Of a DNA stretch of 64,000 bases, positions 1,054-50,500 are shown in pieces. Position numbers and translations under genes: made by a program. Position 1 is the stretch's first letter. The number at the start of each line of letters is the position of its first letter. The notes under the pieces are model-generated. The model searched no databases. It saw only the letters and a list, made by a program, of their open reading frames with translations, and was not told the DNA's origin. Location: assembly GCA_964483535.1 (NCBI GenBank), contig CAZABZ010000001.1:8594-72593 (forward strand), read 5' to 3'. Source of the DNA: an uncultured Planctomycetales bacterium. GTDB lineage: Bacteria; Omnitrophota; Gorgyraeia; Zapsychrales; Fredricksoniimonadaceae.

Positions 1054-1067
1054 GAAATTCTTTATGC

Positions 1068-5162: not shown

Positions 5163-5519
5163 TTAACCGCCCCACCATTTATCCTTAAATTGCTCGGAAC
5201 AATGATCGGTGATGTATTGATAAATCTTGTCCTTGTCCGGGTCCAAAATTTTGTCAAAAGACATCCCATAAACATACCTCCCTTGGTCTTCCTCAACCCA
5301 GGGCAAGCTGACCTCAAGTTTAATGGGATCGAATTTGTCCTCAAGGGCCAACGACATATCCACGGACCGCTCTCGAGGTAACCGTTTGTCAAAAGACGCG
5401 CGCATCCCTTTTAAGTTCAGGTCCTCGATGATACACTGGCTGGATTCCTGCGTTCCGGGCAGCCAGACCTTTGCTTCCCTTTTGACCTGCCAGCGAGGCA
5501 GTTGTCTGCGTTCATCCAT
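5163..5519 (-). CDS. PilZ-domain protein (putative c-di-GMP receptor), 118 aa
   Basis: ATG at 5517-5519 is preceded by AAAGGAGAGAAAA, a strong RBS. The N-terminal ERRQLPR matches the PilZ RxxxR motif. DLNLKG about 24 residues later matches the (D/N)x(S/N)xxG motif. The start is only 30 bp downstream of the giant-gene stop. Confidence 0.6.
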   Translation of the reverse strand: MDERRQLPRWQVKREAKVWLPGTQESSQCIIEDLNLKGMRASFDKRLPRERSVDMSLALEDKFDPIKLEVSLPWVEEDQGRYVYGMSFDKILDPDKDKIYQYITDHCSEQFKDKWWGG

Positions 5520-5548
5520 GTTTTCTCTCCTTTCTAACGGGGTTGTTT

Positions 5549-26500: not shown

Positions 26501-29500
26501 ACGCTTGGCTGTATCCGGACTTATTCCTTGCCTCTTTGGAGTTTCCTGTGGGTAAAGCTGGTTTAATATTTCTCTTTTAAGCTTCTTCCCATCAGCAGTA
26601 CTGGCCAGCTTTTGGAAGTCATCATCAGAAAATGTTACAAAACCTTGAGGCAGTAATTCTCTAATATTTTCATCTATCTCATTTGTTTTCAAATGGTTAA
26701 CGTAATTTTGGAATGGGTCTATGCTATTATTTAGCCAATCGACAGCGCCTCTAATGTCTTTAAACCTATCTGTGGATTTGCCTAATTTTTCTAATAACGG
26801 CTTGATTTTCTCTAATGATTTCCTAAATTCACCCTCCTGAAATTCAAAAGAACGTATTACTGCTAAGGCTTTCTGAACCTCTTCGTCAAATTTAATTTGG
26901 GGATTTTGAGGATCAATCTTACACCCTAACTTAACTAAAAACTCCAGATGTCGCCCATTCATAATACCGTTCCCTAATTGTACACTTGCCAAACAGGCGC
27001 GAACTTCATCCTCAATGGCTTGCAGGTTATCCGCCTTAATGAAATCATATCCTCTGCCCTGACGAATAATGCCTGTGATCCGATCCAAAGCTTCATCGCT
27101 TATGCCATATTTATCTTTCCAGAAATTCCGGAATTCAATATTGTGATTGTCATTATTCAAAAATATTGCTGCCGCATGACGAACGGTCTCGTAATTAACC
27201 AATAAGGATACGCCAGCATAAGTTCCATGCAAAAGTATCCGCGGCATATCGCTGAACCGTTCATACGGTGTTGTGCGTCCATTTGCGGTCGCCGGGATAT
27301 CGGTACGGAAAAATTTGTTAAGGAATTGACGTAGATTATGACGAGCTTCATGATTCAATTTTGTCAAATCACTGTGTGTCAGCGTGAAAGCCTTAAACTT
27401 AGCTTGCTGTGCAACGCTCAACATGGTCTTATTCTCCGCTACAAAACGGTCAATTAGCTGACCATAAATCTTCACTGCCACATCGCGACGGCCACCAAAA
27501 GCGTTATACGCAAATAAATTCTTGAGGCGACTGCGTTGCATCAAACGGTATCCCCAGAACGCGGCCGTAATTCCGCCAAGCATAACGGCACCGGGAATTC
27601 CAAGTCCGATATAACCAAGAACTCCGGCCAACGATGTCAACAATGCAAAACCAGCCTGATAACGGATATCTTCTTTCATGCCGCCAAGACTCTCCCCCTT
27701 AAGAATGCTCAACGCGACATATACATCATCATTGCTGCGAACCGTATACGCGCGGATGTCTTCGGCGAAATCTTTAGCAACGCGGTTGACTGAAAGATAA
27801 AACGTTGTCGAAAGGATCATGGCCCCGAACAGGATTGCCAACGCAAAACCCGGAACAGCCACCAACGCCGCACTCCCTACGCCCAAAGCCCCTAACATCA
27901 TCAGAAGTTTTGGCATAGTCAGGATCGCAACCGCGCCAACACTCAAACTCATATAGAACACTGCATTGCGCAGGATGCGACTGAACTCTTTTAAGCCTTC
28001 GATCATCAAGCCCGTTTCCTGCTGAGTCATATGTAACATTTCAGCCTGCCCGCGGATATAATCACGATCAATCAGGATCATTACCCATGTCTTAAAGATT
28101 GAAACACCCGCAGGGACGTTCCAGAAACGGCGATCAAAAAATAGACGGAAATAATTACCATACAAACGAAGTTTGGACATCGGATAGGTAATAAACGGCA
28201 GATTAAGCTTCTTCATCTCTTCGCGCTTCCAGCTCATGAGATATTTGTCCATGATCTGCTGAACAAACGCTTCATAAATCATAAAAATACGATCTACCGC
28301 AGATCCTGGTGGGTTTCCGTCAACGGTAATCCCATCATACTTAGTGGTCCTCCCATCCTTAGTGATCATCCCATACTTAGTGCGCACATCAAAAAGAACC
28401 TCAATGGCATCTGCCAGCTTGCTATAGAATTGATCATCCTTCAGCGTTCCCTCATTAACCTCATTCAGGATTTGATTCGCTTCAGCGACCGCAGCATCTG
28501 TATCAGCAAGAACATTACCAATCACGCCTGGATGTCCCATCTCTTGGAGAATCTGGTGCAAAATAGCCTTTTGCGTAATCGTAGTCTCCGCCAACATCCG
28601 ACGAGCATCGGCAAGTGTTAGCCCCTGAGCACGCAGATCATGACCTCTCAAGAAATACCGATCCAAATCATCCGGCAAGAAAACCGGACGATGCTGAACA
28701 CGTTTGGATTTCACCCCACAATAGAACGTGTCATACATAACCTGAGCGATATAACGGAAGAAGCGGTCATGTCCTCTGACAATCTCATGGAAGCGACTCG
28801 GCTCTGCTTTAACCTTCTCTGCCCAGCGATTGACCAGTGTCGGACGGGTATAGGCTGTTTCCTGTTCAACCATGCGGACCGTCACATATTCTTCCAGCGG
28901 GATCTCAACATTCCCAAATATCGTCTTACGGCCATCGGCTTCGGTCACGACGTGGAACTTGCGGATCTTAATCGTGATAACCCCATTGGGGGCCAATCGA
29001 AACGCATTCTTGCCTCTCATTTCAATATAACGGCGAACAATCTCTTCGTTAATAAGGTCCCTCTTCATACGAATAGTCACCGCCATCTTCGGAGCATCCG
29101 TTGGCCGGCGTAACAAACCGCCAATATAACGTGTCATCTTGGTAAGATATCCATCATAACGGCTCTGGGTATGAATAAGCGGCTGAGCACCAGCGAGCTC
29201 ACCTATAATATTGCGCACCGCATAAAGGCTTGGATGACGAATCTCCCAACGGCTATCAACTGCTGCCACCACATCGTCTGCAGAAATCGGCATATCATCA
29301 TTGGCTTCTGAGCTTTCAACCTTTGTAATGAGAGCATCAATAATGTCAAGAATAACCTCTTTGGTTGGACGTCCATTAACCAGAGGAAAATTCGCATTGT
29401 TCAAAATACCGCCATTAAGGAAGTTCCATGTCCCCGGAAAAGCATTAATGCCACGAACGAAATCCCTCACATTATTAGCGATGACATCTCTGCCCTCACG

Positions 29501-32500
29501 CAAACGAGCCAATACATACGCCTTGTTATTGAAATGATACTTTTCAAATATCGCGGTGTTGATTGGGATAATGGCAGCCTCAACCGACTTACGGATAAGG
29601 TAAGTCGCCAAGCTGTTGGTCTGTATCTTGTTGCGCTTGACCAGCCTATACGCATCCAAAACAACCGCCTTGATTCTAATGTCCGTAACAAGGCCATCCG
29701 CGATCAGACGACGGAAGATATCAGCCACATCTTCTTTATGATTCGGGAAGGCGTGATCCAAAGCCTCTGCAGCAGCAAGCAGTGCATCATTGCCCTGCGC
29801 TCGGAACATAGCCTTAAGTAGATTTAACATGTCCTTCTTACGGGTTGAGATATCCGTGGGAGTTACATTGCGACCGGTCAAAATCTTCACCCGATTCGTG
29901 AACATATCGCGTATCTTTTGGAACTTAAGAATTCTTCGGATGTTAATTGCGCGTAAGAATGCCAACGCCGCCATCAGGAACGCGCCGATTAAAGAATAGA
30001 ACAACGCGCTCTCCTTAATCCCCTGCCAAATGGTCTTCTCTGTCAGAGTACCTATCTGCTTATCGACAGTGGCCTTTGTCGTCGCGACTGTTCCTGTATC
30101 CGGCGTCAATTCATGAGACTCCATTATGCCAACCGGTCGAAGGAGTAGATTCTGTACAATACCGTTATTCAGGGCATCGGAGATGAAGATATTCTTGGGC
30201 ATTCCTTTCGGCAAATACTCCAGACTAAAGGTCTTGCGGATATACTTGCTGTCCTGCAAGATGACCAACTTACCATTGACGTATTCACGATAAGGAATCC
30301 CGGCAAAATTCTGGAAGAGCCGTTTGATTTTGCCGACAATGCCTTGTTCCATATTTAATTCCCAAATATGAACATCGGCTGGATGACCATTAGGTTGGGT
30401 CACGTAGAAAGAAGCAGGCTTTTCTTTGGTTCGGTCATACGCATTGAGAACATTGTTGATATCTTTACCGTTGATCCAAACACTGTACACCGGTTCATTA
30501 TATGGATTGGAATAAACTTTCTTATAATCGGCAAGCACGTTATCATGTTCAAATATTCTATAATCCACGCCACCCCAAGTGAAATTGATTTCATATTTTG
30601 GCAGTTCGGAAAGTAACGGAATGTTCAAGTCTGTGGGACGTAATTTATTGACTAAGCTGCCATTAGCATCTTGCCCTATAAAAATATTCTCTAAATTCGG
30701 TCCGGCTATCGGATTGCCCTTGGCATCAACCTTGGTATACTGGCCGATCTTATCAGAACCATTGAATGCGTACACATAAGACCCATTGCTCATATTGAGC
30801 GCCGCTAAAATAGCTTCCTGCCTGGGAAGGTTGGATGAACGGTCATCGGCGTAAGAACGGAACGCAATAAGTTGTGGATTTTCTAAAGCGCTTTTCAAAT
30901 CCACCTTGCTCTGCCACGACTCTATGGCCTGCAATCTTCCTTTGCCTCCGTTCCTTATTTCCTTAGCAGCTGAGTCAACCTCCATGGATATTTGCCGGCC
31001 CAACACCTTCTCTGCCAGGAGGTCATAATTATCCTTGCTGGCATCGAGCTTGCCGGTGTATTGATCAACCGTCCCGCGCCCACGGAAAACGTCATAACCG
31101 ATAAGCCCTGATAATTTGTCAAAGTTGGTCAAATTGCTATCATCAAAAATATTTTCTGAATTGTCCCTGCCAACAAAAGTAGACAAAGTGTAATCGGCTA
31201 TGCCGTATATGCCGGTATGCCCATTATAGAAATACATAAAGGAAACGTCTCCGGGTAACATCACAATCCGGCCGCCGATTTTATGGCCAAAATCCTCCCG
31301 CGCCAAATCGCCCAGGTTATTGGCAGTTTCGAGAATATCAAACTTGATCGGACGCCCGTTATAATCAAATTCAACATGGCGGTCACTTTTCGTTCTATTG
31401 TTTACGTATAGCTTTTTGATATCAACGCTATTAATATCAGGAATGACATTCCCGTTACCATAAAGCAGTGCGCTCTTATCAAAAGCTTTTCCCATTTCAT
31501 GACCATTACTATCCAAGACAAAAGTTTCTGCCCGGTTACCCAAATCTACTAAGCTAGGAAGGCCTTCAAAATACGCAACGATTTCAATATTGTCCTTGAT
31601 AGTCCTTGTGATATGGTTATCTTTATTATGGGTCTCAACTGTTTTGTGATTGGCCAACATATGATTGATGACTTCAATAATTAAATTACCGGTTTGCGGG
31701 TTAAATGATACCGGTTTGGCGCTCTTGAATGGTTCTATCCTGCCATCCGGATGAACAATTACCGTCTCTGAACTATCCGCTTGGTTATACAAACTAAACG
31801 GACGGCCATCGACAGGATTGATTGCGCCATCATATTTGTTTCTGATGCTGATTAAATATCTCTGGCCATTGACAAAAACCTCGCGGTAGCTTTCTACGGT
31901 CCGGCTACGAGTAAGAACATCTTTTACTTCATACCATTGCAAGTGGCTTAAGAGATTTGTTAACTGGATCCTGATTTTGCCCTTATTGAACTCTTCGAGT
32001 TTAGATACCGTAAACGGAACGGAATATATATGCTGTCCGCGCTGGATTAAAATATCGGTATGGGCCTTGTCAGACAAAAACACATAGTTATGCCCATACC
32101 CATACCCTGTTATGCGCAAAGCTTGGCCGAGAATCTGATTATTATTGTCCACCAAGGTTATCTGCATATCAGTATCGGCTACGGGCAAGCCTTGAGCGGA
32201 AATCACCTGGATAATTTCGCGGTTGCCATTAAGCAATTGTGTCTGGGTACGGGTCAGTTCACCCTTGTTCCAGCTATACTTCCCATAAATAAACTCCGGA
32301 ATACTTTGTCCGTTCCAGACCAGCGATTCCAGCGCCGAAGCTTCCGTCCCTTTATTGTCATACGCGGGCACATAATCGCTTTTAATGCCATCGCTGGAAT
32401 ATGTCCTGCTCCGCATCAACCGGCCAAACGCACTCAAAGTCCTGTCTGCTTCTTCCAGCTTCTGGCCCTTTTCCAATTTAACCTGATGTTCCTGCCATAG

Positions 32501-35500
32501 CCCGGTCACACGATCATAATTGCCAACTGCGGTAATGGCTTTCTTGTGATCTACCAATGTCTCTGCGGTATAGTTCGTGTCGTTGCGGTCCATCTTAACA
32601 TTTGTATTCCACGGACGGCCCCATTTATCAACGCTGTTGATTCCAACCGAGGCTTCCCAGCGGGGATCATGCTTTTCAATAGTCTCTATGCCGCCGTGCG
32701 CCAAGTCGGTCTTTAAGACAGTCATGATCTGGGTCAACGGGTTGTAATCTAAGGTCCGGTAAGTTTCAGTTTCCTGGCCGTTGGTGAATTTAATGGCCAG
32801 AACGGGCGCCTGGCCTGCGAAAAATTCAGGATCATAGAATTTCCTGGTCATATCTTCAAGCGGGCCTGGGATCCCTTTGCCCATATTGACCATTTCTTCA
32901 TATTGACCGCCGATGTCACGTCCTTGATCATCGGTGACGATGATCCTTTGGGTATTGTTGTGGACAACATCTTGATTGACGGTTGGCAAATACCCGCCGA
33001 ACCGGGACAAATCGCGGTCATCGTTGTTCACCGGCGTGGTGTTGATAAACCGCTTATCGCCCGGCTGAGGATTAAGCAAAAGGTTGACCAATTCCTTTGG
33101 TGTTAATTCACTGTTCAAAGGAGCCTGGGGTTGTGTGCCGTTGTTAAACACCGTCGATCCTTGCAGAGGGCCGTAGGGGTTAAGCTGGTTATCGGTCTTA
33201 AAAAGGTTGTTGACCCTTCGGAATGGCTGGCTATCGACGCCGTAGCTATCCGCTTCCACGGAACCGTCCCGCAAATCAATATATATTTTACGAGAAGTCA
33301 TGTCGCGGTTATCAGTGGGGGTCACCTGCTGGTAATCAGTGGTAAAGGTCATGCCCTCCAGGGGCAATTGCCGATCATGGATCATTTGCTTATCAGGGAT
33401 CATTTGCTTGTCTTTGATCAACTGACGAACCCTATCAACATAGTTCTTCAGGTTGGCCTTGGTTGGATTGGCCAACTCCTGTTCATGATTAAAGGTATTA
33501 CCATATACACGGCTATTGGATTCCTTCCTTAATTCATTATATTCGGGGATAGTGATATGCTTAGACTCGATAGTCAATAGCTTCAGGCCTTCGTAGTAAA
33601 CTTCTACTACTTTCTTCCCTGAAGGATTTGTAAATTCGCTGATCATTTCTTTATGCAGAGGGGAAACGATGCTGGCGGCAAACCGGCCCTTTACGGGTGA
33701 GTTCATATCTATCGTGAAATTACTCCAGCCCTGAAGTTCGCCCTTATACCGTTGCAAAGAAGGCTGGCGGCGGTTTTCACTTTCTAATTGCTCCTTCTGA
33801 CTGCTGGTTAAAATTTCCTGGCCGTTGATCTTGACCGCATCGCCCACTGTGTTGTCCGGTCCTAGTTGATTAATGAACCCCGCGCCTTCAGAATATTCCC
33901 CTTCATCCCCGCGCAAGGCCTTGCCGATGTTGTGGGTATTTTCAGATCGATGCTCAACAAATTTCAGATATTCCGCAACTTCTTCCTCACCGGGCAACAA
34001 ATAAACGTGCGTAGTGACCCCATTTTTGGTGACCACCCATTCCTGACCGTTGTTTCGATCGACATAATCAACATAAGTTCCGTCAGCGGGCGCGGATATT
34101 TTTCCTGCTTCTTCATCTTTTTGTTGTTTTTGGTACAAATCAAATATTGCTCTTTGCTCTCTATCGCGTTCTTTTTTATCCGCCGGCTTTATCGTGGTAT
34201 GGCCCTGCTCCTCTTTGGACACTGCATCAGCATTAGGTAAGGCCGGCAAATCGGAACGGCTTGCTACCGGTGAGAGCAGATCATCATTGTGGAGAACGTT
34301 CGTTTCATATTCAATTAACGCGCCCAAGGATTTGTTGCCCCCGGCGGTAAAATAATCTTTGCCACTCCAAACATTCGGATCAGTGGACTCCGGAATGCTT
34401 AGACTGCCGCCTTTGCTTTGCAATGCCATTAAACTAGACTTATATGTTTTAATTACCTCCTGCAAATCCTTGCGTTGCTTCTCGCTTAGCGGAGACGGAG
34501 AAGCATTTAAAATTTGTTTTAAGACGCCCACAAAATCAGATGTTTCCGCCACGGCAACAATGGCCTCGCGTTGCTGGGGTTGAGTCAAAATAGCCAAAAC
34601 TCTATCAGCATCCTTGCCGGCTATTGCCCGTACTTCATCTTCTTTTAAAACAATACCCGGTATTAAACGCACCTGGGTTTGAGAAACTTCTTTCCAAATC
34701 TCTGGATTGTCTGTATCCAAAATCGAATCTGTGCCCAAGTATTTCACGAGACTTTCCTTCTCGATAATCCCCTTCGGGATAAGGCGCAGGGTGCTGTCAA
34801 CCGGGTCTAAACCTTTAAATTCTCCTTTTTCTGTACCAAAAGTATTGACAATGGCACGGGTGACCTTAATTAACTCTTCTGTCTTATCGGCCCCAACCAA
34901 AAACTCCTTGGCGAAGCCCTCCGGCCCCAAGACCCTTAACCAAAGCAGAGTGGTAGAAGACGCGTATCCCGGCTTACCTTCCTTATAATGGAACAACAGT
35001 GCCTCGTGATCCCACAATTTATGAGCGGTATCTATGACCTCCTTGGCGGCCTTAGGGTCACCATATTTATCAAAGAACGCGTACATCAATGGCGCCTCAT
35101 CGCCGTTTTCGATCTGCTTTATCTCTTTAATCAGACATTCGTGGATCGGTTTTAAAGCCCCTTCAAATTGTTTTTGGGCGCTGACCTCTTTCCCATGATT
35201 GTCCTTTTCATTATCCTCAATCTTTTCATTCGGGTAAGCTTTGTGGAAGTTGATCAGGCCAATACCGAACAAAGCTGTCGCTGTGCGGGAACTTGAGGCC
35301 GGCCTTAATTTTTCAACATCATAACTTTCAGGGGCCCCAGCGTATACTTCTCCTGGAATTCTGGTATTGACCTTTAAATTGCTGTAATAGACCGCCAATA
35401 TATTTTTGGCCTTTTGCTTGTCTTTCTCATTGGGGCTGGCAATAGCGCGCAAAACCAAGTTCAATTCATTAACGCTCATACCCCGTGGATTGTAAATTGA

Positions 35501-38500
35501 GCCTCCAATGTCATTAGAACCAAACAGATGCGTAGCCTGATTATTCTGAGCATATGTCCCGAAAGCAGTCGTGACCGTTTCGGAGAAAGATCCGATTTCC
35601 TTTGCTTTTCGGTAATCGATATAGGTTTGCCTGGTCTTTTCTAAATCTTTGATGGTCCGTTCGATGGCATTTGCTTTTAAGATTACTACGTCTGTCACTT
35701 TGCCTGCGTCATCATATTTAACATAGACCGGCACTTCGATTTTTTGGTCTGTCTGGGCAATGGTGATTATGGACTTCCCAGGAAGAAGATTTAAATTGTC
35801 CATCTCCTGTTCAGTGTACCCATAAGATTGTGACTTCCTCCAACCATCAACAACAATAATGGCTTCAATATTCGGATCCGCATACAAATCTTTGAGTGTT
35901 TGCAGATTTTGAATTTCCCAATCTAAGCTAGGGTTCTTAAACGGCAGAGAAAAATTAATCCTCAAATGCTTGGGTGAGTTGAAAAATAGCGGATTTGACT
36001 GATCGCTCCATTCATTAATAAAGCTGCGGGTATCCAATGAAACTCCGATGAATGGAAGCAACGCTAATACTGGGTTGAGTTTGCCATTGAACATATCCTG
36101 GATTCCTATCTTACTTAAGACTCCATAATTTTGCTTCCAGAAACTGTCTCCTGTTTGGATGCTAAGGTAAGGTAAAGTGTTGCCCTGGATGATCAAGGCC
36201 GCGGTCTGGATCAAATTGACCTGGCTGAGGTCCCAGGAAATAATGGGCTGGGTCAAGACAGTGACTAACCCGCTATACTTCGCTTGATACGATGCCCACC
36301 ACATATAATCCGGATGGGAAGTCCCATTTGCTTCAGTCTTGATATACGGATGAAGAATGTGATCATACTGTATCTGCGGTGCATATAAACCAAGTGTCTG
36401 GCCTATCAAGACGGTAATCTCATCTGAAACACTTAAAAATTTACCGACTAACGCTTCGTGCATACGTGATCTTAAGAAACTATCCACTTCGGCAATCTGT
36501 TGCACTGAGAAGGCGCTGGTGCGGAAGTTATGGCCTTTCTTTGTCCATTCATCAAATTGCTGATGGTTGGTTTGCCTGGTCTTTAACCATTCTTCAAACG
36601 TGATGCTGTTAGATCTGTCGCTTTCGGAGAACAGCACCCATCCGACCAACTCATCTTTACGTTTATCATCAATAGGGCCGGGCAAAGTATCCTTGACGTG
36701 ATGACGTAAATCAAAGATCACGTTGCCCAATGCCTGGACCACTCCGCCGCCTGGTATTCCAAAAGCGCTCATACCCGTGGTTATAAAATCTAAGGCAATA
36801 CCCAACCTGCGGCGGCTCTTTTGCATTTCCAGGGTTTTACCTACTGCATTCTTTTCCTGCTCAGCGGCATATTTGGCGAATTGATTTTGGGCAATCCCTA
36901 CACTGAACTTATTAGGCCCGAATAAATACCGCGGCTTTTGAAGCACTTCTTCATAGGTTTCCGGATAATACTGGTTCAAAAATGGTTTACCGTTTTTGTC
37001 GCCTAATAGCTTTTCTTTGTCCGAAGAAATTTCCGCGAACTGTATCCAAACTCCAGAGACGCTGTTGACATATTCCAATTCACGGCTGTTGCCTTTGTCC
37101 CCTTTAATCGCATAAGTCACGCGCTTAAACGGTACCTGTTTGGGCACCTCAACAATTTCGCCTTCAGCCATGAAGCGCTTAACAGAGCCGATGTTGCCCC
37201 ATTTATCAGGGATAATTTCCGCGGTGGTCAAAAGCCCTGTCTCAGGGATGGCCACGCCTTTAAACAATTGTGCCATTTCCGGTTTTGCCAACTCAGCGAG
37301 CTGCTCATTCCGATCAAACATGCCAAGGACCTTAATCAAGGCCATTTGCATTTTGATGTCATGCTGTGCGGACTTTATCAAATCGTATTGGGCCTGGGCC
37401 GCTTTTTCGCCCGACCACAAAATACCTTCTTGATCATGACCGTAGGCATCTTTGAATTTAACCAACGTCAAAAACGGCCGTCCGGCCAGTTCGTTGTTAT
37501 GAACATCCGCGAGATTAATCGGCGGAAACTTCTTATCATCTTTTATGTCAGCCAAATCAAGAGGTTCTGCGCCTAATGGAATAAATTTGGCGATTAGTTC
37601 TGTGTCTTTTTTATACAAGAAATGATTCATCTGTTTCTCAGTCCTAATCTCAAGTAATGGAGCGTGTAAACTGCCAGGCTCTATAGATCCAACGACAGCC
37701 ATGACTTCAGCCCCGAAATACAATTTCTCCTGGATATTTATAAAATTCTTACGGGCAGTTTCAAGCCACTTGATCTTGATGTCTGTGCCCTTGTAATTAA
37801 TTTTTCCTGTTTTCAGAAACTCTATCAAACTCTCGCGGTTTTTGAATAAACCATCCATGTTCAACCGGCTTAATTCTTTCAATTTCTCATTAAGCAATCC
37901 TTTGTACTCTTTAACCCCGAACAATTTATGGACTAAGGAATCATAAGCGACCATGCTCATCTGTTCTGTCCGGGTTTTGTCACCCATATCAATTGTTTCG
38001 CCGTTCAGAATCTTCACGTAATCTCTGACCCTGTCCGGCGTTTGCTGGAACACTGCTGAACTCAAGAGATCTTGACCTGCTTTGGCCCACTCTCCATTCA
38101 ACATATGCTGGCGCCAGGTATAAAATGTGCTATAGGAACCATTGGTCTGATACGCAAGTTCCACCGCAACCCACTGAGCTCTCCAGGACAATTTACTGAA
38201 TGCTTCCGGACCAAAGAAATCAGCTGCTTTATTAATATACTGTGGCAGTATTTCAACCAATATCTTGTCGGCTTCGTCCTGGGTCGATCCTCGCTTGCTT
38301 TGAATAACATCCTTAGGCAGGAGGTTTAGAACGGTGTTCCATTCAAATCCATAACCGATATCCATTTGTTTGTGGTTTGGATCTACATAGGGCCAAGCTC
38401 TAAAACCTTCATGCTTGCGTATGCTGCTCATTACGGATGGGCCAGCTTCCGGTTGTAACAAGGAGTAAGCTTCGGCTAAAGATTCCTGGATTCGTTGCAA

Positions 38501-41500
38501 ATCCAGATTATTCGTCTGATATTCCAGGGCCTCTTTATCCGCGATGACTTTGTACTCTTTATTGATAATACCGGTTAATACCGCTTCGACCTTTTCTAAT
38601 GCCGTCGTATCATTGCGAGAAACCGTGGGCGACGTGGCAATCTTTTGCAATAGCTTTTCCAAATCACGTATGGCCGCTTCCAACGCTTTGGCTTGTTCAT
38701 CGCCGCGAACGGCTATCGGTACGATAATTGAACCCTCCTCAAAGTATCCTTGCAGCTTATCTAATAGATCCTTCGAAAACTTCTTGTCATGGGCTTGTTG
38801 CAGGTCCTCGAGCTGATACCGTATGTCTAAAAGACCAAGTGACTTGACTTTGTTTAAACCGGCCAAAATATCTTTATTCTGCTCTGCATCCCGGATTGCC
38901 AAATCGAGTTCAATCTTTTCAAATTTCCTAAAGTTCCCCTTTTCATTGCTATTTCCCTGCAAACGCTGCAATTCGCTTTTCACTAATAGAGTATCTATCG
39001 CTAATTGTATTGATTCTTTGACCTTCTGGTCCTCTTGATACCGGGCTAATTCTAATTGATACTCGTAGTAGGCGCTGAGTACGCCAAGGGCACGCTGTTG
39101 AGCGGCGAACGCTGTCTTCTGGTCATTAGGGTCATAACGAACAGTGATCGTTTGACCTTCGATTGCCTTTTGGACCACCTGCTGGGTAGCAAGCCAATCT
39201 GAAAGATGATCGCCGCCAACAACTTGTTGAACAATGCCTTTGAATTGCTCAGCAGGCACATTATTGTCTTCTCTTATCTGCAAAAGCTGTTGGGTGTGGT
39301 AAAGCGCGATTAGCTTCTGCATATCCGCGGAGACGCTCTGTGGACCTACCAACAAGACTGTTGAAGCAACCTGCGCCCTGTTAAACGGTACAAAGTCCCG
39401 TACTTCAATAGCGGCTACCTGCGACTGAATGCTCAGTATGGTCGCCATCACGCTTGTAGCGGCTATTTTCTTGATGCGTCCGGCAATAGGAGTAGCGGCT
39501 TTACTCGAGCGTTCTTTGCTCTGAAGGGCCGTGATTTTCTCCTGATCTTTTTTAATTTCTTCTTGGTCCTTTTTGATCTCTGCTAATCTATGTTCAATAT
39601 TTTGGGCCATTCCCTTCAAATTTGAGGCGCCAAAAATATGCTCAACTGCATTCAAATTGCTCTCTTCCTGCAGGGATACGTATGGATTTAATCCCAGCTC
39701 TTGCGCTCCCTCTTGTAACCCTTGCGCTGTCTTGCTGTTCTTCTCTTTTAGCAAATCGTCGCCGTTCAAATTTTTTCTAATAATTGTTTGAAGTCCTGCC
39801 TCAATCCGTTTTTGCTGATTAGCTTGACTGGCCCTGTACCAATCACCTATGGAAATCCCGCGGACGTCTTTAGACGCGACGAAATAAAACGCCTGCCCGT
39901 TCATCTGGCGCTTCACTAAAGCCGCTATGGTTTCAAGGCCATCCTGGTCCAAATCAACCGCCACGCGCTGAGGAATACTCAAAACAAACCTGTCTAATCT
40001 GGCGGCCTCTCCATTCTCCGTTGTCTTAATACCAATAGCCTTAGCCGCGGAATTTTCCGGTGTGGCTGCGCCTGAAAGATTCAGCATATAAGCCAAACCA
40101 AACTCCGGATGGTAAAGATAATTTTCGCCCTGTCTTGCCAAATGCGCTTTGACCTCATCCACGTTTTGAGCTATCGCGCGATTGGTCCGGTAGAAGGCCG
40201 CCGCTATTTGATCACGTATCAACAGGTCCTTGATTAGAGGGACTATGGACAATTTAGCGGAAAGCGTAAATTTGATATCTTCCGCCTTCCGTGCTGTTGC
40301 CTGGGCTAACTTTTCAATTAATGGTTCCAGCTTGGCCTGGAAGGCTTTTTGCTGGCTGACTCGATCTTCTATCGGTAAAATCAAACTGACCTGATGTTTA
40401 TTCTTTAATTCCACAGACGGCACTTCGCCTTCACGAACATCCGTAATTTCCAGTGCTCCCTGTGCCCCGGCGCTATTGGCTAATCGGGCGCCCAATTGCG
40501 CCTTGAGAATAGCTCCGGCAAGGCCTCGGTCATCCAGCTTTTGCTCCAACTCTGCCAAAGTCGACTGCCGTCCCACCTTGGCCACGCCTGCGCCGCCCGG
40601 CAGAAGCTCTAATTCACCGACAATGCGGGTCTGAGGCTCAATGGCGTCACGGAATTCCTCATAAGAAAGATGCTCGCGTCCCGTCGCGATTTGGGCGTCT
40701 TTAATAGCATCTCGCAACTGAGGATATCTTTTAATGAATCCTTGCGGATTTAAGCTAAACTCATCATCTAAATGTCTCAAATTCAATTCATTGACCGGCA
40801 ATCTTGGCTCTCCAAACAAATTATTGACCGTATTGTCAAGGGTGTTCTGAGGCATAACATGATTAAAGAATTGCCCCATAACACTCATCGCGGAAGGAGG
40901 AACGTCTGCGCCGTAAGCAGGTGACTCCGTGGCATTGATGACCGCATTGATGCCATGACCGACAACAGAATCTTTAAACGGAGAATCTTTCTCGACAAAT
41001 GATGCCCCTGCCGCGGTTAATGTAAAGATTTCCGCGGCAATAATCCACATATGCCAGACCCCGGCCCAAAATTCTGCACCTGTATCCGCCAATAAATTCC
41101 AAATGGATCCAGAAGCGAAAGGCTCTTTCCCAAGTGATTGCCGAATCAACCGCCAGGCAGAAACCGGCAATAATAATGGAGACACCAAAGTTAATCCAAA
41201 CGCCACGATGTCCATGGCCACAAAATAAAGGGCCCCCTTAACAGAAGCGCTTTTAATAGGAGTGCTTTGTTCTTCACGGACGGCTTTCTCCAATATCGTT
41301 CCCAGGGCCGGTCTGCCGTTGGTATCTAATCTTCCGGTCTTGATTAAATCTCTAATCAGAACTTTTATCTCATCTCGATCCTCAATAAATCGCTTATCAC
41401 GCAACAAATCATAAAGTGTATTGGCATAAAAACCAACGTAGCCCATTGCCGCGGCTTTTTGGGCGAGAACCGCATGCTTTCTCGTTAAACTGTCACTTGA

Positions 41501-44500
41501 AATACGACCGCTTAAACGGAAAATCCTGTTTAATTTTAAATTCATAAACAGGACCATAAACCCTAATCTAAGCAATTCACCCCAAGTGAAGGTCAAATGA
41601 ACAGTCCACAATTGGTCCTTAAGCCAATTAAGACCGAATACCGCGCTGTGGGCTTGGTCCGGGAAGAAGTAAATCAAAACAAAGGAACCAGCAATTCGAC
41701 CGATGATCGCCAAAGTCGCCCTGCCAAACAAGAATGTCGCTGTCCCAATACCAACTGGGAAGACCAATTGCAAGACACGGCAAACAATGACCCCTCTGTA
41801 CCAGACTGCATTGAGTTTTCCTTTTTGCTCTAATTCATCCTGGGCATCTTTTGCCTCTTTTTTGATGTTCTCCTCAACAGCCGGGGCTAATTTACCCTTA
41901 ATATAATCATCAACGAATTCACCAAAAGCAATCAATGTCCAGGAAGCCACAAAGAAGAATCCCCAAAATACCGAGGCTAAATACGGTGATAAAAATCCAA
42001 TAATCCCGCCTTTGATAGCAGTGCCTATCATGTACCCATAATTGATATACCCCAGACAAGCTCCCAAAATTGTCGCGCCGATAACAAATATTGTGAACAT
42101 CCTGTTGTTAATTAATGAATTTACGAAACCACTCTTCTGTTGTGACCGGTTTTTGGACAGATCGAATAATTTCGTAAACCAGAATGGTTTAACTTCCTTA
42201 AAGAACGCACGCGATACTCCCAATATCATTGCGCCACCACTCACACCAAGTTGCTTTGCCTTGATTGTAATAAGCGAGAAAATATCTCTCAATCCGCCAA
42301 AGAATCTTGTATTTTTGTCCTTATAAAGACGATAGATATCCTTTGCTAAAACTCCGGAAGCTATCAGGAACAAAACTGATGGCAACAAGACAGTAAGTTC
42401 CTTGTAATTCTTAAGGCCATTCTGGTAAAGCTGAACAAGCGGTGATGTGCTTCCGAGGAACAGGCTAAGGGCCTCAAAGAAAAGTGGAATGCTGAAGATA
42501 AGATGTGTGAAGCTCTTTACTGTTGTAAAAAGTTTCTGCCGTGTTTCCTTTATAGGAATGTACTGCAGATGTTTGTCTTTCTGTGCCTTCCATGTGTATA
42601 AAATGAATCCAACTGGAATAGCAACCATGAGCGCATGGATAATGGTGGCCTGCGAAGGAACGGCAAATTGGATGACTTGACTAATTAAGGTTGGTGATGT
42701 TGAAGCAAAGGACAGGGCTGGCATCCCCAGCAAGAGAGCAAAAACTGTTATAGGTCTGACAGCTAATCTCCAAGCCCCATGTCCCTGAATAAATGCTATA
42801 ACTGGCTTGATAGCAGAATTATGGAAGCCTTGAATTAAAGCTTGAATGCGGGTTGCTATAGAAGGAACACGAATTCCACCGTTCTTTTCTGCCTCGTTTT
42901 GGGCGAGCGAAACAACTGTGGCTGCGGCAGTGCTTGTCAGAACAAACACTTTTTGCGCCTTCGATTCATCGCTTCTTGTCGGAGTCGCGGACGCAGTCCT
43001 AGAACCTTGAAGAAATCTATTGTTATAAGCGTCTACGTCGATACCCAATCGTTGCGCAGTTTCCACACTTCTAGAACCTCGCACATCTTGGGTTCTTATA
43101 CCTTTTATGGTTTCTGCTGCCTTGGGTACACTTCCTACACCTTCTGCACCTCTTGCAGCTCCGCCATATAGGCTAGACACGCTATTTTCACTTCTACGGA
43201 TGCCCTTCCCTAATACTATCCGGAATGCACCCAGCACTTCTTTAACGTACCTTACGGTACGAGAACGGATCTTGCTTGCTTCTACTGTGCCTCTACCTAC
43301 TTCGCTTGTAACACCCGCGTTCACCACGAGGGTGGTATTGCCAACTGCATTGTTGCCAACTTCTGTGCTTCTAACTGCTATGTTGCTTGTACTGCCTACC
43401 TCTACTACCTTTACTTCGCTTACTTCTTGCTTCTTCGCGGACGGAGCTCGCGCTAAGCCGCTTCCTGCATTTTCATCAAAAACGGTACTTCTTGTTGCAA
43501 CTCTAGTACTGCCAACTACTTCACTATTTTCCTCTTTTCCTACCATTAATCTGTATGCTAACCTGAGGAAGGTTAGTACAGATTGAAAAATACCCGGAGA
43601 ATATAACCTTGGGCTAGTTCTTGCTACAAAATCCTCCATATTAGTACCAAAATCGCCTCTATTCCCATCGGATAAGCCCATGTTTCCAGGACTTGTCTCA
43701 TTCAAGAACGTACTCGGTGGCGCACCTCCAGGCCCGAAATTCCCTCCAGACCCGGGCGGAGGCTGATTAGGATTAGTCGGTAAATACGGTAACGGCGGTA
43801 CTTGTTGTGTCTCCTTAGACTTAGGCCAACTCTTATTTGGCATCTCTTCCTTAGGCGCTGGCGTTACCGTAGCTGCTGGCAATTGACTTCTGCCGTTGAT
43901 AAAGGACAAGAAGCGATCAGGATCCTGTATTAGTTTCTTATTTGTATATTCATCGATTTTAGCAAACAAACTTTTTGCATCGGCCCGTATATTTTGTCCC
44001 TCTTTATCAACAACTTGCAATCTCCATGCCTCCGGCATCCCCAAGAAATCAGAAGCTTCAAACTGATTATTACCGGAATTAAGCATCTGGCTTAATTTAT
44101 TTATGACTCCCCACTGTCCTTTAATCTTGTCCGCATTTTGATAGAGAGCACGCAGGTAATTCATTGCCGCTCCTCTGGTCACAAAGGTCTCACAGCGCAA
44201 GAAGAAGTCGACATCCAACGCTGTCTTATCAGGCTTAGACTCATAATTTTTAAGGAAAATCGCAATCATTTCCGGATTATTCATCAAATGCGCTAATTCA
44301 TCTAGAGTCAGGGTCTCAAATCTTCCTTTGGTTTCATTCCTGACAAATTGCAGCCTTTCCTGGGCATCCTTGGCATCCATATCAAGCCATATCCCGGCTA
44401 ATGAAAGATAGCTCAACAACGAATCCTCTGTTCTGCCTTCTTTGGCTTCTTGATTCCTTATTGCCTCCAAATCCTTGACTTGCAGAGCACCTTTAGCGGC

Positions 44501-47500
44501 ATACAGTTTGGTCGATTCAGCCAATTCTTTAACTAATTTCATCCGCGTATCAAATGCATTAAGGAAAGGTGTTTTGCCCAATACGCCCCAGAACAGCTGG
44601 ACAACCTTCGGCTTTTGCGATTGCTCCTGCTCAAATCGTAATAACGCATTGCGCTGCGTGATCATTCTTTTATACAAAGTATCCGCGCCATTTTTAGTGA
44701 GTTTGTCAGACAAATGTTTGTACACCGTATTATTATGATCAACTTTCAACGCATCGGCTATTCTAAGCGGCATCAAATCAGGCATCTGATCATTAGTCAA
44801 CTGAGTCTGAAGTGTTCTTAAATTCTTAAGGAAATCTTGGGGTTCTATTTCCGTATTTATGCTGCCGCCATGCTGGGTCCAGAAATCCACCATAGTAGCC
44901 CAACGTAAAACATCCGTTACATTATTCTCATTGGCCTCGAATAAACGATTGGTTACGTCAAAAGCCAACCGATTAATTTCTTGACGGTCTTCGCTTTCGG
45001 CAGGGGCGTTTTGAGTTAGAACGGCCAACTGTCGACGTAACTCAGCTGAAAGTTTGGCAACCGTCTCCATCTGGCTTAAGAAAATTAACCCGAGCTGGGT
45101 GACGGAGTGGTTGGTAAAATACAAATCATTGTTTAAGAATTGGTCCGCCAGCGATGGTCCTAATCTTTGCTGCAAAGTATCAGCCGTGATTGGGCCATTG
45201 CTGGAAAGGGCTTGGGCTGTGACATTGGCCGCATGAATGGCGTCTTGACCATATACAGGAGCTATGTTGGTTGGCAAAACAGCTTCAGCAAATTTATCAC
45301 GCAAAGTCTCAAAGACCTCTGTGAAATTAACTCTTATCTGTTGAATCTCCTGGGGGAATTCCAAACTCGGCAATTTGCTCTTGCCGTAAGGATTGATTTT
45401 AATCTTGGGCAACTCTTCTCGTTGAAGGTCATGGGCTATATTCAAATAGCGACGCACCTGGTCTTCCAATGCAGGGCTTATGCCGGATGAGAGTAGCCCT
45501 TCGAGCATACTGGTCGTGCCGTTCCAATTCGATTGTGACGCGGCAATAAACCATTCCGGACCACTGACGGTATAATTAAGGAGCATTTCGCGTTCATTGC
45601 TGAATCGTCCTCCCAAAACCTGGGTCAACATTAACTCCAATAATTTTTTATCTCCAGGGGATTTCTCAAACAGGGCCAGCCATTTTTGCAAGGGGCTGAC
45701 TTGGCGTAAATTGTGCAATACATTAAGCACCGCATGGCGTACAGTCCGGTCACGATGGGCCAAAGCATTATATTTGACAATCAAGCCTAACAGAATCTCC
45801 GGCTTAATCGTCTTTGAATCAACTCCTGACAAATTCTGTTGAGCATCCTTTACAAAATCGCGGATATCTTGATACATTTTCCCATCCGGCAGGCGTTTGC
45901 TTAATATATCGACTTGTTCCTGAAGATATCCTCGATAACGCTCAAGGTTTTCTCTATCGTTGTAGAGGTATTTATCTCCCTGCTCGCCATTACGATTATT
46001 ACGGTTTAATGCCTGGATCAATAAGGACTCTTGCCATAAATGGCCGGCAAGTACATGGTTGTCCAAAGCGCCATTGAAAGAGATACCAGTGGAGATAAAC
46101 GGTAAGCCCAATACTATCCAGTTGTTGGGGGCCGCGTTATTTTCCAAATATTCAATTATTTCATTTTGATTTTGATTACTGCCATCGAGAATAAGTACCC
46201 TGATTTGGTCAATCGCTTCTTCTTTTTTCAAGTCATCCACCGTCAAAACAGGAGAATCTCCCCAAAATACGCCGGTTGAGGCTGAGGCCAAAGCGGCTTT
46301 CAATTGATCCGCGAATTGGCGCTGAATATCCGCATACGGAGATTGCACAACCACCGCGCGTTTTCCCGCTTGTTCGACAACTTTATCGACTGCAGCTTTT
46401 AAAGATTCACCTAATGTATCCTTCAAATCAAATAATGTGAGTTTGTCCAATTCGAGTGTGCTGGGTGAAATCTCTTCAAATGGGCCCTGCACAAGACCGG
46501 ATTGCAATATGGCCTCCAAGCCTTGAGCTGTCGCGGTAAAACCAACGACCTCATCATGGCCCAAGACCAATTCCCACAAAGGATTTTCACTCTTGGTTTC
46601 ATTGGTGATTGGCATCTTATCAATGTCAATTTTGTTATCGGGATTACGTTCGTTATATTGCAGGACCTTGCCAAACAAATAGGCAATGTATGAAATATTC
46701 TTTTCGACTTCCACGATGCCTGTCGGACCTACAGGGAAGTATCCTAATTTTCCATTTTTATCCAGAGCTAAATTTAATCTAATCCCGTCGGGTTCAAGCA
46801 TGGACTGAATGGTCGCGGCAAAATGGTTTTTATCGCCTTCATCTGTTATTTTGTATGCGTCATAAACCCCCCAGGAAACCAAGAAATGCCGGCCATCGAC
46901 GGCAATGTTAGGATTGTAATAAACAATGGCCTCGCCGCTGGCCTCTGCTTGACGAAAGACGTCCAGACTGTCCGTGATCTTGTATTTTTGTCCTTTACTT
47001 AAATCCTTAAGCCAGTCGGCCACTTGATTGCGCACGTGGGCCAAATAGGGATCTTGAGTTATATCCGTCGTAGTGGAAACAACGTAATTGTATATCTCGG
47101 CCAGCTTCTGCATCTCATCGACAATGAGCGAGCCGTGTTTAAATGTCACCGCGGCTTTGGCGATTTCAGGTTCTTCAAAAATAATCGGCATGAACCCGCG
47201 GGCATTGTAGGACGAAACCTTGATCTTATTGGGATTTGTCAGCATATTGACAAACTCCTGAATGCGGGCCTCTTTGTCTATTGAAGAAGGACCGGTCGCG
47301 ATATATTCTTTTAATTGATTAGACAATTCATCAAGATTGACAAATTCAAAATCCGGCGGCAATTCCCGGCCCAAAGCGCTAACCATGTCTAGAGCAAATT
47401 CTGCGGATGTCTTTCCAAAAATATGTTTCCCCTGAACAACGCGTCTGACAATGGGTTCGCTGTCAAAAAGCATCAACACATTTTTATTGGATAAAGAACG

Positions 47501-50500
47501 TATGACAGCCTGGAACACTTCGGGCAGGGTCTTGCCCGAACTATTGCCGGCCACAATGCTTTTGCCCATGTCCGCGGCCCTGATCATCTTCTTCTGATCT
47601 CCCCATTTCTGAAGATCAACGTAAACTCCACTTTGCTGCAAATTTTCTAATTCCTGATCAAGGGAATTCAAAATGGTCTCAACATCCTGAGGATTGACCG
47701 CAGCGACCATGGCCCGATCCCTATACGCAAAATTCAAAACCTCATCCATGAGAGCCACTACAAGAATTTTCTCCTGTTCGGTTTTATCTGTAATGCCCTT
47801 ATTCAGGAAGAATGTTAAAATCAAACGAATGACATCCGGATCGGCTCCATATTCCCTCGAGGCCTTTGATATTCTATCTCCCCAGTTTGTGGAACCAATC
47901 GCCATTGATGTCAGTGTATATGTGCTTCTGTAGGCTTCGAGATTTCTACGGGCCTCATCCTCCGAAATTTGGGCTTCTTTTAATCCGCTGATTAACTCCC
48001 TTGCCTTCTCTATATTGTCCTTTACATCTCCTGTCATGGCCTTATCATTCTTCCCATTATTACCATCCTCCATGGCTAAATTCAAACTAACTGAAACGAC
48101 AGGAATATTAATATTGACGGGCGGTTGAATATTGGGAATGCCCTTAGGAGGCACATTTTGCATTTCATTAGAAACCTTCCCCCAAGCCTGTTGTAAAATA
48201 TTCTTTGCTTTTTGAGTATCGCCAAAGATAACTTTAGGAATTTCCGTGAGAACTTTCTTGCGATGAGGATCATTTAGCATCTCCTCAGGAATTTGACGAT
48301 ACACCTCAACAATCTGTGCGGCATCAAGTCCTTTGGTAAGCTTAACAAGCGCCGCTCGATCATCCACAAGAACGCCTTTTAGATCAGCCATAGAATAAAG
48401 ATCCGGGCCCATGCTCTGCAACATGACATTATCAGGCGCTAATAATAGGAAGGTGCGTGAAGCAACATACCATCTGAAAGCTTCTAGCCTGCTCAACTGT
48501 CCGGCATCTACTTTCTTCCCTTTATATTCCACCCATTGTATTTCGTTGGCTGACTGGGACATGTCCACACTAGCAAACGTCGAAGATCCGACATGATCAC
48601 CATTTGTCAGCGGGGCAATCTCTGCCTTATCATACTCAGCTAAAATTGGAATAAGTTGTGCGCTGTCAGCTAAAGCAACATAACGGATATCCAGTCCTTG
48701 TTTAGCCAAAGACATAAAAGCAGTGTAATTATTTTTTGCAAAATTTCTAAGCAACCTGACTATACGGAGGGTTCGGGCAGAGGAAATAGCAGCATTTATC
48801 CGCCCTTTCGGTGGTGCTGTTGACTGAGGATTCATGTATGTGTCATTGCGAGGAGCCGCAAGTGACGAAGCAATCTCTTTTTGCATCTCAGCAACAGGCA
48901 CAGATGCCAAAACGGCATTGCCCCCTGCGATCAAAGCTTTAATATCCATTAAGCCTTTAGCCTTCAACGATAGCTTTTTAGCCACAGCATAAGCCTTAAG
49001 TACGCTCAAAACAATTTTCAACGCATATTGAGGATTATTCTTAGTCTGTACGGCCACAGCCTTCTCCAAAATCCTACCCATTGCTGCTTTAGGCAACAAC
49101 ATCAAGAGCGGAACAAGTTTACCGTAAAAATCCTTGGCACTTAACATTGAGTCATCAGAATCGAATTCACTATCTTTGGCAGCAAGTACAAAGTCCTTAC
49201 CAGGAGGAGCATACATGGCCCAGTCCAGACGAGAGGCTATGTTACTAATTACATTCATGGCCGCATCCAGAGGATTTTTAAATTTCTTGTCTGCCTGATT
49301 GATTATCCATATTTCTGTGACGGTATCCGCATAATCAACAGGACTGGTATCGCTCACGACTTCAGCGCTGTCGATAACCGACGACCCCGGCTGAAATTTA
49401 GTCTGGTTAACTAATTGAGCCTGATTCGCTGAAGCAGATATTTGTTCATCAGCTAAAGCATTGCGCTCTGGTTGTACAGGAAGCCCGTCGGAACCAATAA
49501 CCAAGCCCTCTCCATAGGGACCAATAGGCACCCTTTGCGGTTCTGGCTCAATCTGCGGAGTAACTCGGTTAATGCCCGCCTGATTATTGAAAACTATTTG
49601 AGGTGGTAGGACAATTCCCCTTTGTGCTTCTCCATCATACGAGGCATACACGCGATCCCAAGCTTCCTGCAAATTATTACTAAATGTTTGCGATACATTT
49701 TTCCATTTGGATTGATATTTAGTATCAAGGAATTTTAAAATAGGGACCAGTTTCTTGGCTTTGTCCCCATATTTGCTCCTTACCGTTTGTTCTGTCTCGC
49801 CTTTTAAAAACCCATATTGTTCCCGCAAAGCATCTAATTTGGTAAGCCAACCCGGCCCTTCACGACGGATGGCTTCAACATCATCTTTATCATAACCATG
49901 ATTTTCCATCATGCTGATAAAGATGCCTTTCAAATCCGTGTCGTCTCCTGCCCGCCAGAATTTCGGATCTTCATAAGATAAGCTGTTAGCATCATGTAAA
50001 ACCTTATCAACTTCTTCCAAAGAGTGGATGCTCTCATGGTTAAATCCATAGTTGATGTTGTGTAGATTTTCCTGCTCTTCATTGTCCAGATCCACAAACT
50101 CTGCTTGGATAGCCCAGATGCCGTCTGTCTCAACCCATTGGTCACCTTGTTTGGATATGAGCCCAAGTGTTTGTAAATATTCTACAAATTGCTCTTCTTG
50201 CTTTGTCAACTGCCGCCCCTTCGCGGAGTTCAAAAATTCAACAATCCCATAATTGCCAGCCTGATTAGTCAAGTTAACCCCATTATATTTAAACCCGCCG
50301 GCTGCCTTAAGAGGCACGATATCTCCTTTTTTAAATTCTTCTCCCGCACCTTCACGGAACACCATGAAGCGAGACATGGCGTTTAGCCCCCAACCCCTGG
50401 TCGCGACGATGTTGAGTATCTTTGTGCCTTTACCTACCTCTTCCCCTACAAATGGCGACTGCCCCATTTGAAGGTTGAATATTAAATGGCCCAATGATTG

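Follow-up and report, generated by a model that had tools for sequence, protein, structure and literature searches.

The window analysed here comprises 64,000 nucleotides of contig CAZABZ010000001.1 and carries on its minus strand a giant open reading frame (ORF; 5549..63991) that encodes 19,480 amino acids (aa) inside the window. Within the encoded protein, at about residues 8516-8669 (37985..38446, minus strand), a T4-lysozyme-like domain (GH24, PF00959-related) has been identified, and this domain, together with the long module that follows it, is the subject of the present analysis. Residues of the giant protein are numbered with window position 63991, minus strand, as residue 1. The ORF is open at the 5' edge of the window; the nine bases upstream of its first in-window ATG, up to the edge (63992-64000), are stop-free. 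A JGI metagenome contig, Ga0455670_0001368 (115,215 bp; locus L003), which is identical to window positions 718-15519 at 14,802 of 14,802 bases, calls the giant gene product as 21,986 aa, and the difference from 19,480 aa places about 2,500 N-terminal residues beyond the window.

A first-pass annotation, made from the letters of the window, had proposed for positions 38012-40444 a long coiled-coil stalk followed by a phage-type GH24 lysozyme domain inside a giant envelope protein. The plus strand of this interval gives a translation riddled with stops, and the minus strand, which the annotation had left unstated, reads through as part of the giant ORF. The lysozyme does lie inside the interval, but the 3' limit at 38012 clips around nine residues of its last helix. 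The placement in a giant envelope protein was correct: the product is a multi-pass membrane protein with the length given above on the JGI contig.

Sequence and fold of the lysozyme domain

The domain adds a new and highly divergent member to the T4-type lysozyme family, and its assignment to the T4-type (GH24) fold and family is close to certain. An exhaustive phmmer (HMMER) search of 1.84 billion cluster representatives revealed 159 proteins at E<=1e-3, seven of them at E<=1e-10; the best relative reaches E 6.8e-15 at 35% identity, and all 159 matches span the same stretch of about 140 residues. The best relatives pass the PF00959 gathering score in 10 of the 10 cases tested (29.8-53.6 bits). 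PHROG 2083, the 'internal virion lysozyme motif', is also hit by the query: profile positions 765-900 of 908 align at E 8.4e-8, and a 450-residue slice still gives E 5.4e-7. A family profile built from the query and 24 relatives (A1) aligns with T4 lysozyme (T4L) at E 4e-24 across T4L residues 5-158.

The predicted structure leads to the same family. An AlphaFold2 model of the domain, built from 34 admissible homologues, has a mean predicted local distance difference test (pLDDT) score of 88.4 and a predicted template modelling score (pTM) of 0.83, with model residues 1-160 confident. The model has the two-lobe T4L fold, composed of a beta-hairpin N-lobe and a helical C-lobe, the latter as the first-pass annotation had expected. 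In a Foldseek comparison the top 50 PDB matches of this predicted model were all T4 lysozyme or T4L fusion constructs, with a template modelling score (TM-score) of 0.70-0.77, normalised to stand-alone T4L chains, and a root-mean-square deviation of about 3-3.5 A. The best-matching named entries of a viral structure library were lysozymes and endolysins of phages, among them the lysozyme domains found in podovirus proteins of 850-990 residues. A phmmer comparison of the domain with all slices of the giant protein indicates that it is present in a single copy.

The raw sequence gives a different picture in standard scans. The isolated 168-residue domain scores 17.2 bits (E 0.0065) against PF00959, Phage_lysozyme, for which the gathering score is 22.3, and the match is confined to the N-lobe (profile positions 2-55). 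Pfam scans of 450-, 811- and 5000-residue slices contained no lysozyme match, NCBIfam gave none for the domain, and a word-indexed search of 5.8 billion proteins returned no match to it. A tblastn search of 50,697 phage genomes yielded one weak match, the 'lysozyme murein hydrolase' of Pelagibacter phage HTVC119P (28.6% identity). Direct sequence comparison with PDB reached E 0.2-1.4, where all matches but one were T4 lysozyme or T4 gp5 lysozyme and several of the single-sequence alignments covered T4L 7-151. Since the raw Pfam score lies below the cutoff, the claim of homology rests on intermediate sequences and profiles.

The Pfam score, sub-threshold and limited to the N-lobe, and the modest PDB values are what would be expected of a chance resemblance, that is, of a short motif match in a protein with no true lysozyme domain. 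This explanation can practically be dismissed: it is refuted by the relatives recovered among 1.84 billion proteins, by the full-length profile match to T4L and by the predicted T4L fold with its Foldseek result. The same three results uphold the earlier call of a phage-type GH24 domain. The profile search suggested with that call falls short for the raw sequence and succeeds through the relatives and the family profile, and of the 'T4/lambda-type' then named the T4, or viral, branch matches and the lambda type does not fit. More generally, real domains escape standard Pfam scans of giant proteins, so that isolation of the domain or the use of intermediate sequences is needed.

The closest sequence relatives include lysozyme domains of large phage virion proteins (32-35% identity, E down to the best value given above), in which the lysozyme is likewise one domain of a bigger, envelope-crossing protein. 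In the virion-type relatives P0001, P0003 and P0006 (826-866 aa) the lysozyme is C-terminal, and the gene of the best relative, P0001, is part of a phage structural module, next to an adaptor-like gene. PHROG 2083 presumably corresponds to the phiKMV gp36-like internal virion proteins. Virion-associated lysozymes open a local hole in the peptidoglycan for a large assembly to cross. The genes of these relatives stand in phage structural modules and their products keep Thr at the position of T4L Thr26, whereas the giant gene is chromosomal, near mutL and mutS, and its product has Asp there. Outside the lysozyme domain no PHROG match was found in residues 7670-11449, and no similarity to the phage relatives extends beyond the lysozyme.

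Catalytic residues and the Thr26 position

The motif HEGFRAWPYVDPNHKQMDIGYG, at residues 8527-8548 (window 38348-38413), holds three positions of catalytic importance. Column counts refer to 151 aligned sequences, the query and 150 relatives, and all codons are on the minus strand. The general acid of T4L, Glu11, corresponds to Glu8528 (codon 38408..38410), with Glu in 149 of the 151 sequences; Asp20 corresponds to Asp8537 (38381..38383), with Asp in 125 and Cys in 20. Arg145, the partner of Glu11, has its counterpart in Arg8654 (38030..38032), which is Arg in 147 sequences and invariant in both A1 and A2. Gln8615 is the equivalent of T4L Gln105, and further T4L equivalents are present for Tyr18, Gly28, Gly30, Phe114, Ser136 and Gln141-Thr-Pro; the G-x-G hairpin of T4L is retained as well. 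With these residues, the two-lobe fold predicted here and the full-length profile alignment, the domain resembles T4 lysozyme at an identity of about 18-21%. It differs in a longer hairpin turn, in the residue at the Thr26 position and in its context, T4 lysozyme being a soluble endolysin of 164 aa and the present domain an internal part of a membrane protein of about 22,000 aa.

The Thr26 position is occupied by Asp8544 (38360..38362), which directly precedes IGYG. The earlier annotation had described the catalytic signature as Glu/Asp/IGYG; the Glu and the Asp are indeed kept, but the change of the third catalytic residue from Thr to Asp had been overlooked. The equivalence is based on column alignment and on the modelled hairpin, whose strands RAWPYVD (8531-8537) and QMDIG (8542-8546) coincide with strands 14-20 and 24-28 of T4L, the turn being longer than that of T4L by one residue. 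The modelled match favours the equivalence of Asp8544 with Thr26 over a shifted pairwise PDB alignment.

Among the 150 relatives the Thr26 column contains Thr (116), Ser (13), Ala (6), Val (4), Cys (3), Leu (2), His (2) and one each of Asn, Met and Glu; Asp occurs solely in the query. As the column is variable in the family, Asp8544 is to be regarded as a variant and not as grounds for exclusion from GH24. In T4L, Thr26 and Asp20 together hold the attacking water, as later literature states with reference to Kuroki 1999, and Thr26 sits where hen egg-white lysozyme has its nucleophile, Asp52. The T4L mutant T26E is inactive and covalently trapped to its product, since the introduced Glu attacks C1 of N-acetylmuramic acid (MurNAc) and stays bound, and the mutant T26H is converted from an inverting hydrolase to a retaining transglycosidase. 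Data on a T26D mutant were not found in the literature.

The change from Thr26 to Asp may alter the chemistry, and it need not by itself abolish activity. The lysozyme domain is rather more likely than not to be catalytically competent. An unlikely but attractive prospect is that of a natural 'T26D' T4-type lysozyme, which would act by a retaining double-displacement or transglycosylating mechanism, or would stay covalently linked to MurNAc for long periods, stapling the giant protein to the sacculus. If true, a natural counterpart would exist for mechanisms hitherto known only from the engineered T4L mutants T26H and T26E. In either case the Asp at this position offers a small, testable mechanistic point for GH24 enzymology.

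The conserved module, its probable place in the envelope and its proposed role

For the lysozyme module of the giant protein, one collinear homologue was found. P0014 is a metagenomic protein of 6,502 aa from JGI/IMG, encoded on a 148-kb contig and labelled 'YcbK (DUF882 family)'. Residues 8521-8684, 8829-9199 and 9224-10973 of the giant protein align, in this order, with P0014 residues 1158-1322, 1810-2190 and 2304-4056; the largest block has a blastp E value of 1.6e-39, and phmmer searches with successive overlapping 400-residue slices match P0014 in the same order. The part beyond the lysozyme, residues 8829-10973 (31073..37507, minus strand; collinear with P0014 1810-4056), is a conserved module of unknown fold, for which no sequence match was obtained in Pfam, PHROG or PDB (the last with residues 8685-11327). 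About 360 residues past the collinear part, both proteins have a single hydrophobic helix, at 11328-11346 in the giant protein and from 4432 in P0014. At the level of sequence, the lysozyme stands at the head of about 2,450 conserved residues; the larger module counts the lysozyme, about 2,250 further residues and a putative membrane anchor.

P0014 is one third of the size of the giant protein and carries domains that the latter lacks. A weak PG_binding_1 match lies just upstream of its lysozyme, and a Peptidase_M15_3 domain (37.2 bits against a cutoff of 23.2) lies just downstream, in a segment absent from the giant protein; its residue at the Thr26 position is Leu. The N-terminus of P0014 (about 330 residues) is 48% identical (E 2.6e-97) to residues 39-376 of a protein of 1,295 aa, which begins with a Sec-type signal peptide and whose gene is the second one downstream of the giant gene (1068..4955, minus strand). 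In P0014 the module is apparently joined both to other peptidoglycan-directed domains and to a homologue of this secreted neighbour, and P0014 provides a putative gene-fusion link between the neighbour and the lysozyme module of the giant protein. It was also observed that residues 1-25 of P0014 are signal-like and that a second signal-peptide-like segment occurs at 871-889 (RRNP...AGTAHA followed by SAF); the two segments may reflect an unusual topology or two adjacent genes merged in the assembly.

The order of lysozyme, long spacer and helix is also known from other relatives, where the lysozyme stands at the N-terminus of proteins of 1,400-2,600 residues, often with one hydrophobic helix near the other end; many of the phage relatives share this pairing. 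Relatives P0010, P0011, P0015, P0028, P0045, P0049, P0082 and P0130 have an N-terminal lysozyme of the same subfamily, then 1,200-2,300 residues with no known domain and one hydrophobic helix, which stands 160-350 residues from the C-terminus; at least some of these proteins are phage-like, P0010, P0011 and P0015 matching PHROG families. Their order is that of the module of the giant protein, and outside the lysozyme similarity is undetectable.

Upstream of the lysozyme lies a linker, residues 7667-8515 (38447..40993, minus strand), which is helix-rich and segmented. Its last 666 residues (7850-8515) correspond to the coiled-coil stalk of about 650 aa that the first-pass annotation had proposed. 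Compared with the whole protein they have raised contents of A, L, Q, K and E, and they contain 16 Pro and 32 Gly, so that the longest run free of both is 42 residues. A heptad score, which is a crude measure of our own and neither COILS nor MARCOIL, placed one 28-residue window above the shuffled 95th percentile; this covers 4% of the residues, compared with 80% in a tropomyosin control. The window, residues 8132-8159 (IEHRLAEIKKDQEEIKKDQEKITALQSK; 39515..39598, minus strand), is the sole coiled-coil-like one. A single-sequence AlphaFold model of the region gave 23 helices of 5-37 residues, interrupted by loops, at a pLDDT of 36.7, at which the secondary structure is weakly usable. No Pfam or PHROG family was matched by the linker, its 849 residues had no homologue among 5.8 billion proteins in the word-indexed search, and the region upstream of the lysozyme of P0014 is unrelated to it. 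The linker is a helix-rich orphan and not a 650-residue coiled coil, though with so crude a score and so weak a model short coiled segments are possible.

The hydrophobic segments on both sides of this region bear on its location. About ten transmembrane-like segments, recognised by Kyte-Doolittle peaks and flank charges, lie at residues 7076-7666 (40994..42766, minus strand), the last of which (7648-7666) is the weakest, with a peak of 1.63 and no charge bias. Between 7666 and 11328 the hydropathy profile contains nothing helix-like, and the single predicted transmembrane helix at 11328-11346 (29954..30010, minus strand; hydropathy and flank charges) closes the loop. The N-terminal flank of this helix is neutral and its C-terminal flank has six K/R and no D/E, a +6 charge that predicts an N-out/C-in orientation. 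The P0014 helix from 4432 has the same polarity, and the P0014 helix at 871-889, before the module, with +3 in front and AHA-S behind, predicts N-in/C-out. The two bracketing helices place the PG-binding, lysozyme and M15 domains of P0014 outside the cytoplasm, as such enzymes require. The likeness of the P0014 N-terminus to the signal-peptide protein encoded beside the giant gene points the same way. Judged from these sequence features, the lysozyme module is likely to be extracytoplasmic, on the periplasmic side of the cytoplasmic membrane, and both ends of the lysozyme loop, which is about 3,660 residues long, seem to be tethered to that membrane. Unless the protein is processed, such tethering speaks for action on the wall of the cell itself.

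The most likely role of the domain, to which we assign a probability of about one half, is local cleavage of peptidoglycan in the cell's own envelope. The module would be positioned on the periplasmic side, held between the upstream helix cluster and helix 11328-11346, and the lysozyme domain would cut the backbone of MurNAc and N-acetylglucosamine locally. The cell's own sacculus would thereby be opened or remodelled where a very large extracytoplasmic segment passes or settles. Such a job would be analogous to that of the autolysins SagA and TtsA and of the lysozyme domains of phage ejection proteins. SagA of Brucella is a T4L-like muramidase that opens the bacterium's own peptidoglycan on behalf of the type IV secretion system, and TtsA of Salmonella is a T4L-like muramidase that serves typhoid toxin export. 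Both share the T4L-type Glu/Asp/Thr set and, in the proposed local opening of the own wall, the role. They differ in being small, free periplasmic proteins with a PG-binding lobe and in keeping the Thr, and their likeness to the present domain is at the family level.

Several observations weigh against this role. As regards the substrate, nothing in the evidence distinguishes between a foreign wall and that of the cell itself. Asp8544 is unique among the 151 sequences, while T4L T26E is inactive and T26H has a changed mechanism. Orthologue scans of GTDB genome contigs and of JGI metagenome contigs, the latter run with the single sequence and then with the giant/P0014 alignment, revealed no relative of the region. 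The N-terminal residues beyond the window make an overall topology count impossible, and counting the ten upstream peaks with alternating loop charge returns the chain to the cytoplasm. This last count, taken with a divergence so great that Pfam misses the domain and with a published warning that topology predictions for such giants disagree between programs and are unreliable (West-Roberts et al. 2023, bioRxiv 10.1101/2023.11.21.568195), would suit a cytoplasm-facing relic, a decaying phage acquisition, functionless or re-purposed, which never meets peptidoglycan. Such a relic is very unlikely: no key residue of catalysis or structure has been lost and the model has high confidence, the tenth peak is the weak one without charge bias, the positive flank (+6) that follows helix 11328 speaks for N-out, and the module is shared with P0014, whose PG-binding and M15 domains and bracketing helices point outside. 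An anchor, in which the Asp8544 domain binds glycan, even covalently, and fastens the giant protein to the sacculus, is also improbable, if less so than the relic. It would explain an Asp, found in no other family member, at the place from which the Glu of T26E attacks C1 of MurNAc, and, with the remainder of the substrate cleft conserved, binding is plausible. A pure binding module, however, needs none of Glu8528, Asp8537 and Arg8654, which are all kept; the side chain of Asp lacks one methylene of Glu and may fall short of C1; about one fifth of the relatives are non-Thr (Ser, Ala, Val, Cys, Leu, His), which shows a tolerant position; and no data on a T26D mutant turned up.

The strongest competitor of a role in the own wall, though clearly the less probable of the two, is a weapon, already named in the first-pass annotation, whose lysozyme part, exposed on the surface or released, would digest the wall of prey or host in predation or episymbiosis. 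The nearest relatives include phage virion proteins, which would attack a target wall from outside, and P0014 unites three peptidoglycan-directed domains, as lytic effectors often do. The architecture of the giant protein, with TPR, helicase-like, radical SAM and PPDK-like domains and many helices, resembles that of the 'Archaeovorin' giants of Omnitrophota, and a part in predation has been put forward for giant multi-helix proteins with murein-cleaving SLT domains (West-Roberts et al. 2023). Against a weapon it must be considered that the loop is bounded by predicted membrane helices on both sides, and the lysozyme would have to cross the cell's own wall and outer membrane or be released by proteolysis; no peptidase domain or cleavage signal was found in the giant protein, and no adhesin-type repeats flanking the domain. 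A predatory host is an assumption, and the MutS comparison gave no affiliation to Omnitrophota.

The same preprint reports proteins of at least 10,000 aa in other phyla of the Planctomycetes-Verrucomicrobia-Chlamydiae (PVC) group too, and lists SLT lytic-transglycosylase domains as a less common component. The present protein shares with Archaeovorin its size above 10,000 aa, the many transmembrane helices and the domains named above. It differs in several respects: the published murein-cleaving domain is SLT and the one here is GH24; Archaeovorin has a divergent SecA DEAD helicase, whereas Pfam gave ResIII and no SecA_DEAD here; and the hosts of Archaeovorin are Omnitrophota, whereas the nearest MutS here comes from a genome labelled Planctomycetales (58% identity, a weak placement) and no affiliation to Omnitrophota was found. 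The first-pass annotation had pointed to reports of giant genes enriched for wall-degrading domains, and giant proteins with murein-cleaving domains have indeed been described, of the SLT and not of the GH24 type; neither 'lysozyme' nor 'GH24' occurs in the main text of the preprint or of a 2026 survey. Giant multi-helix proteins with murein-cleaving parts are already known. New are the GH24 domain instead of SLT, the module shared with P0014, the putative fusion link to the secreted neighbour and the unique change from Thr26 to Asp. Bacterial giants of 10,000-150,000 residues are almost wholly uncharacterised, and their proposed role in wall degradation rests on domain annotation; a confidently modelled, expressible domain of about 170 residues is a small, assayable entry and could become the first biochemical handle on a giant protein and on the wall that it cuts.

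Other parts of the giant protein and neighbouring genes

The giant protein has about 30 or more hydrophobic segments, several clusters of which separate enzyme domains. Pfam matches elsewhere in it are several or mostly near or below the curated cutoffs, and their residue ranges are approximate. They comprise TPR (about 1895-2290), a ResIII helicase core with the Walker A motif GTGEGKST (2773-2905; 26.2 bits against a cutoff of 22.5), B12-binding and Radical_SAM (about 13678-13969), DUF218 (about 14295-14405), NAGPA phosphodiester glycosidase (about 14579-14739), PPDK_N and PEP-utilizers (about 15327-15675) and a RelA_SpoT-like domain (about 18688-18775); a P-loop region was matched as well. 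A mosaic of cytoplasm-type enzymes in one membrane protein is seen at window positions 5552-23044 and 54242-58320, both on the minus strand.

Repeats are present at both ends. Residues 89-893 (about 61313-63727, minus strand) form three or four units of about 240 residues with 25-32% identity. Near the C-terminus, residues 18290-18450 and 19083-19250 (about 6242-9124, minus strand) are a duplication of about 165 residues with 60% identity, each copy of which contains a hydrophobic stretch and the motif SARSLRENIALHRQYNLE. The repeats are missed by a self-BLAST of the whole protein because high-scoring segment pairs contained in the self-hit are discarded; a chunked self-comparison found no repeats near the lysozyme.

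The genes downstream of the giant gene are, successively, a PilZ-domain gene, the gene of the 1,295-aa protein, mutL, mutS, a PBP5-type carboxypeptidase (Peptidase_S11), rpmA and glmS. The surroundings are those of an ordinary chromosome, and the organism has peptidoglycan-related genes. A protein of a polyvalent phage or a conjugative element was considered and set aside in view of the chromosomal context and the multi-helix membrane architecture. The 1,295-aa protein belongs to no Pfam or NCBIfam family. Its C-terminal 65 residues or so and those of P0014 look alike by eye (GGI-L ... DPA ... GL-PV ... F-GLN), where BLAST is silent.

In a search of 185,579 GTDB species genomes the best MutS match, at 58% identity and with weak placement, came from a metagenome-assembled genome of an 'uncultured Planctomycetales bacterium', and the remaining matches, at 44% identity or less, were from mixed phyla. 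In the genome with this closest MutS (CAZAXH010000018.1, L010; 51% guanine plus cytosine, compared with 45% here) an ORF of 2,710 aa (14375-22507, minus strand) is convergent on mutL; it has no similarity to the giant protein or to the 1,295-aa protein.

The PilZ-domain gene (118 aa; 5163-5519, minus strand) lies between the giant gene and the gene of the 1,295-aa protein. The exact PilZ protein is encoded by 11 contigs of several metagenomes, with identical neighbours in 8 of the 8 places shown, which hints at control of the locus linked to cyclic di-GMP.

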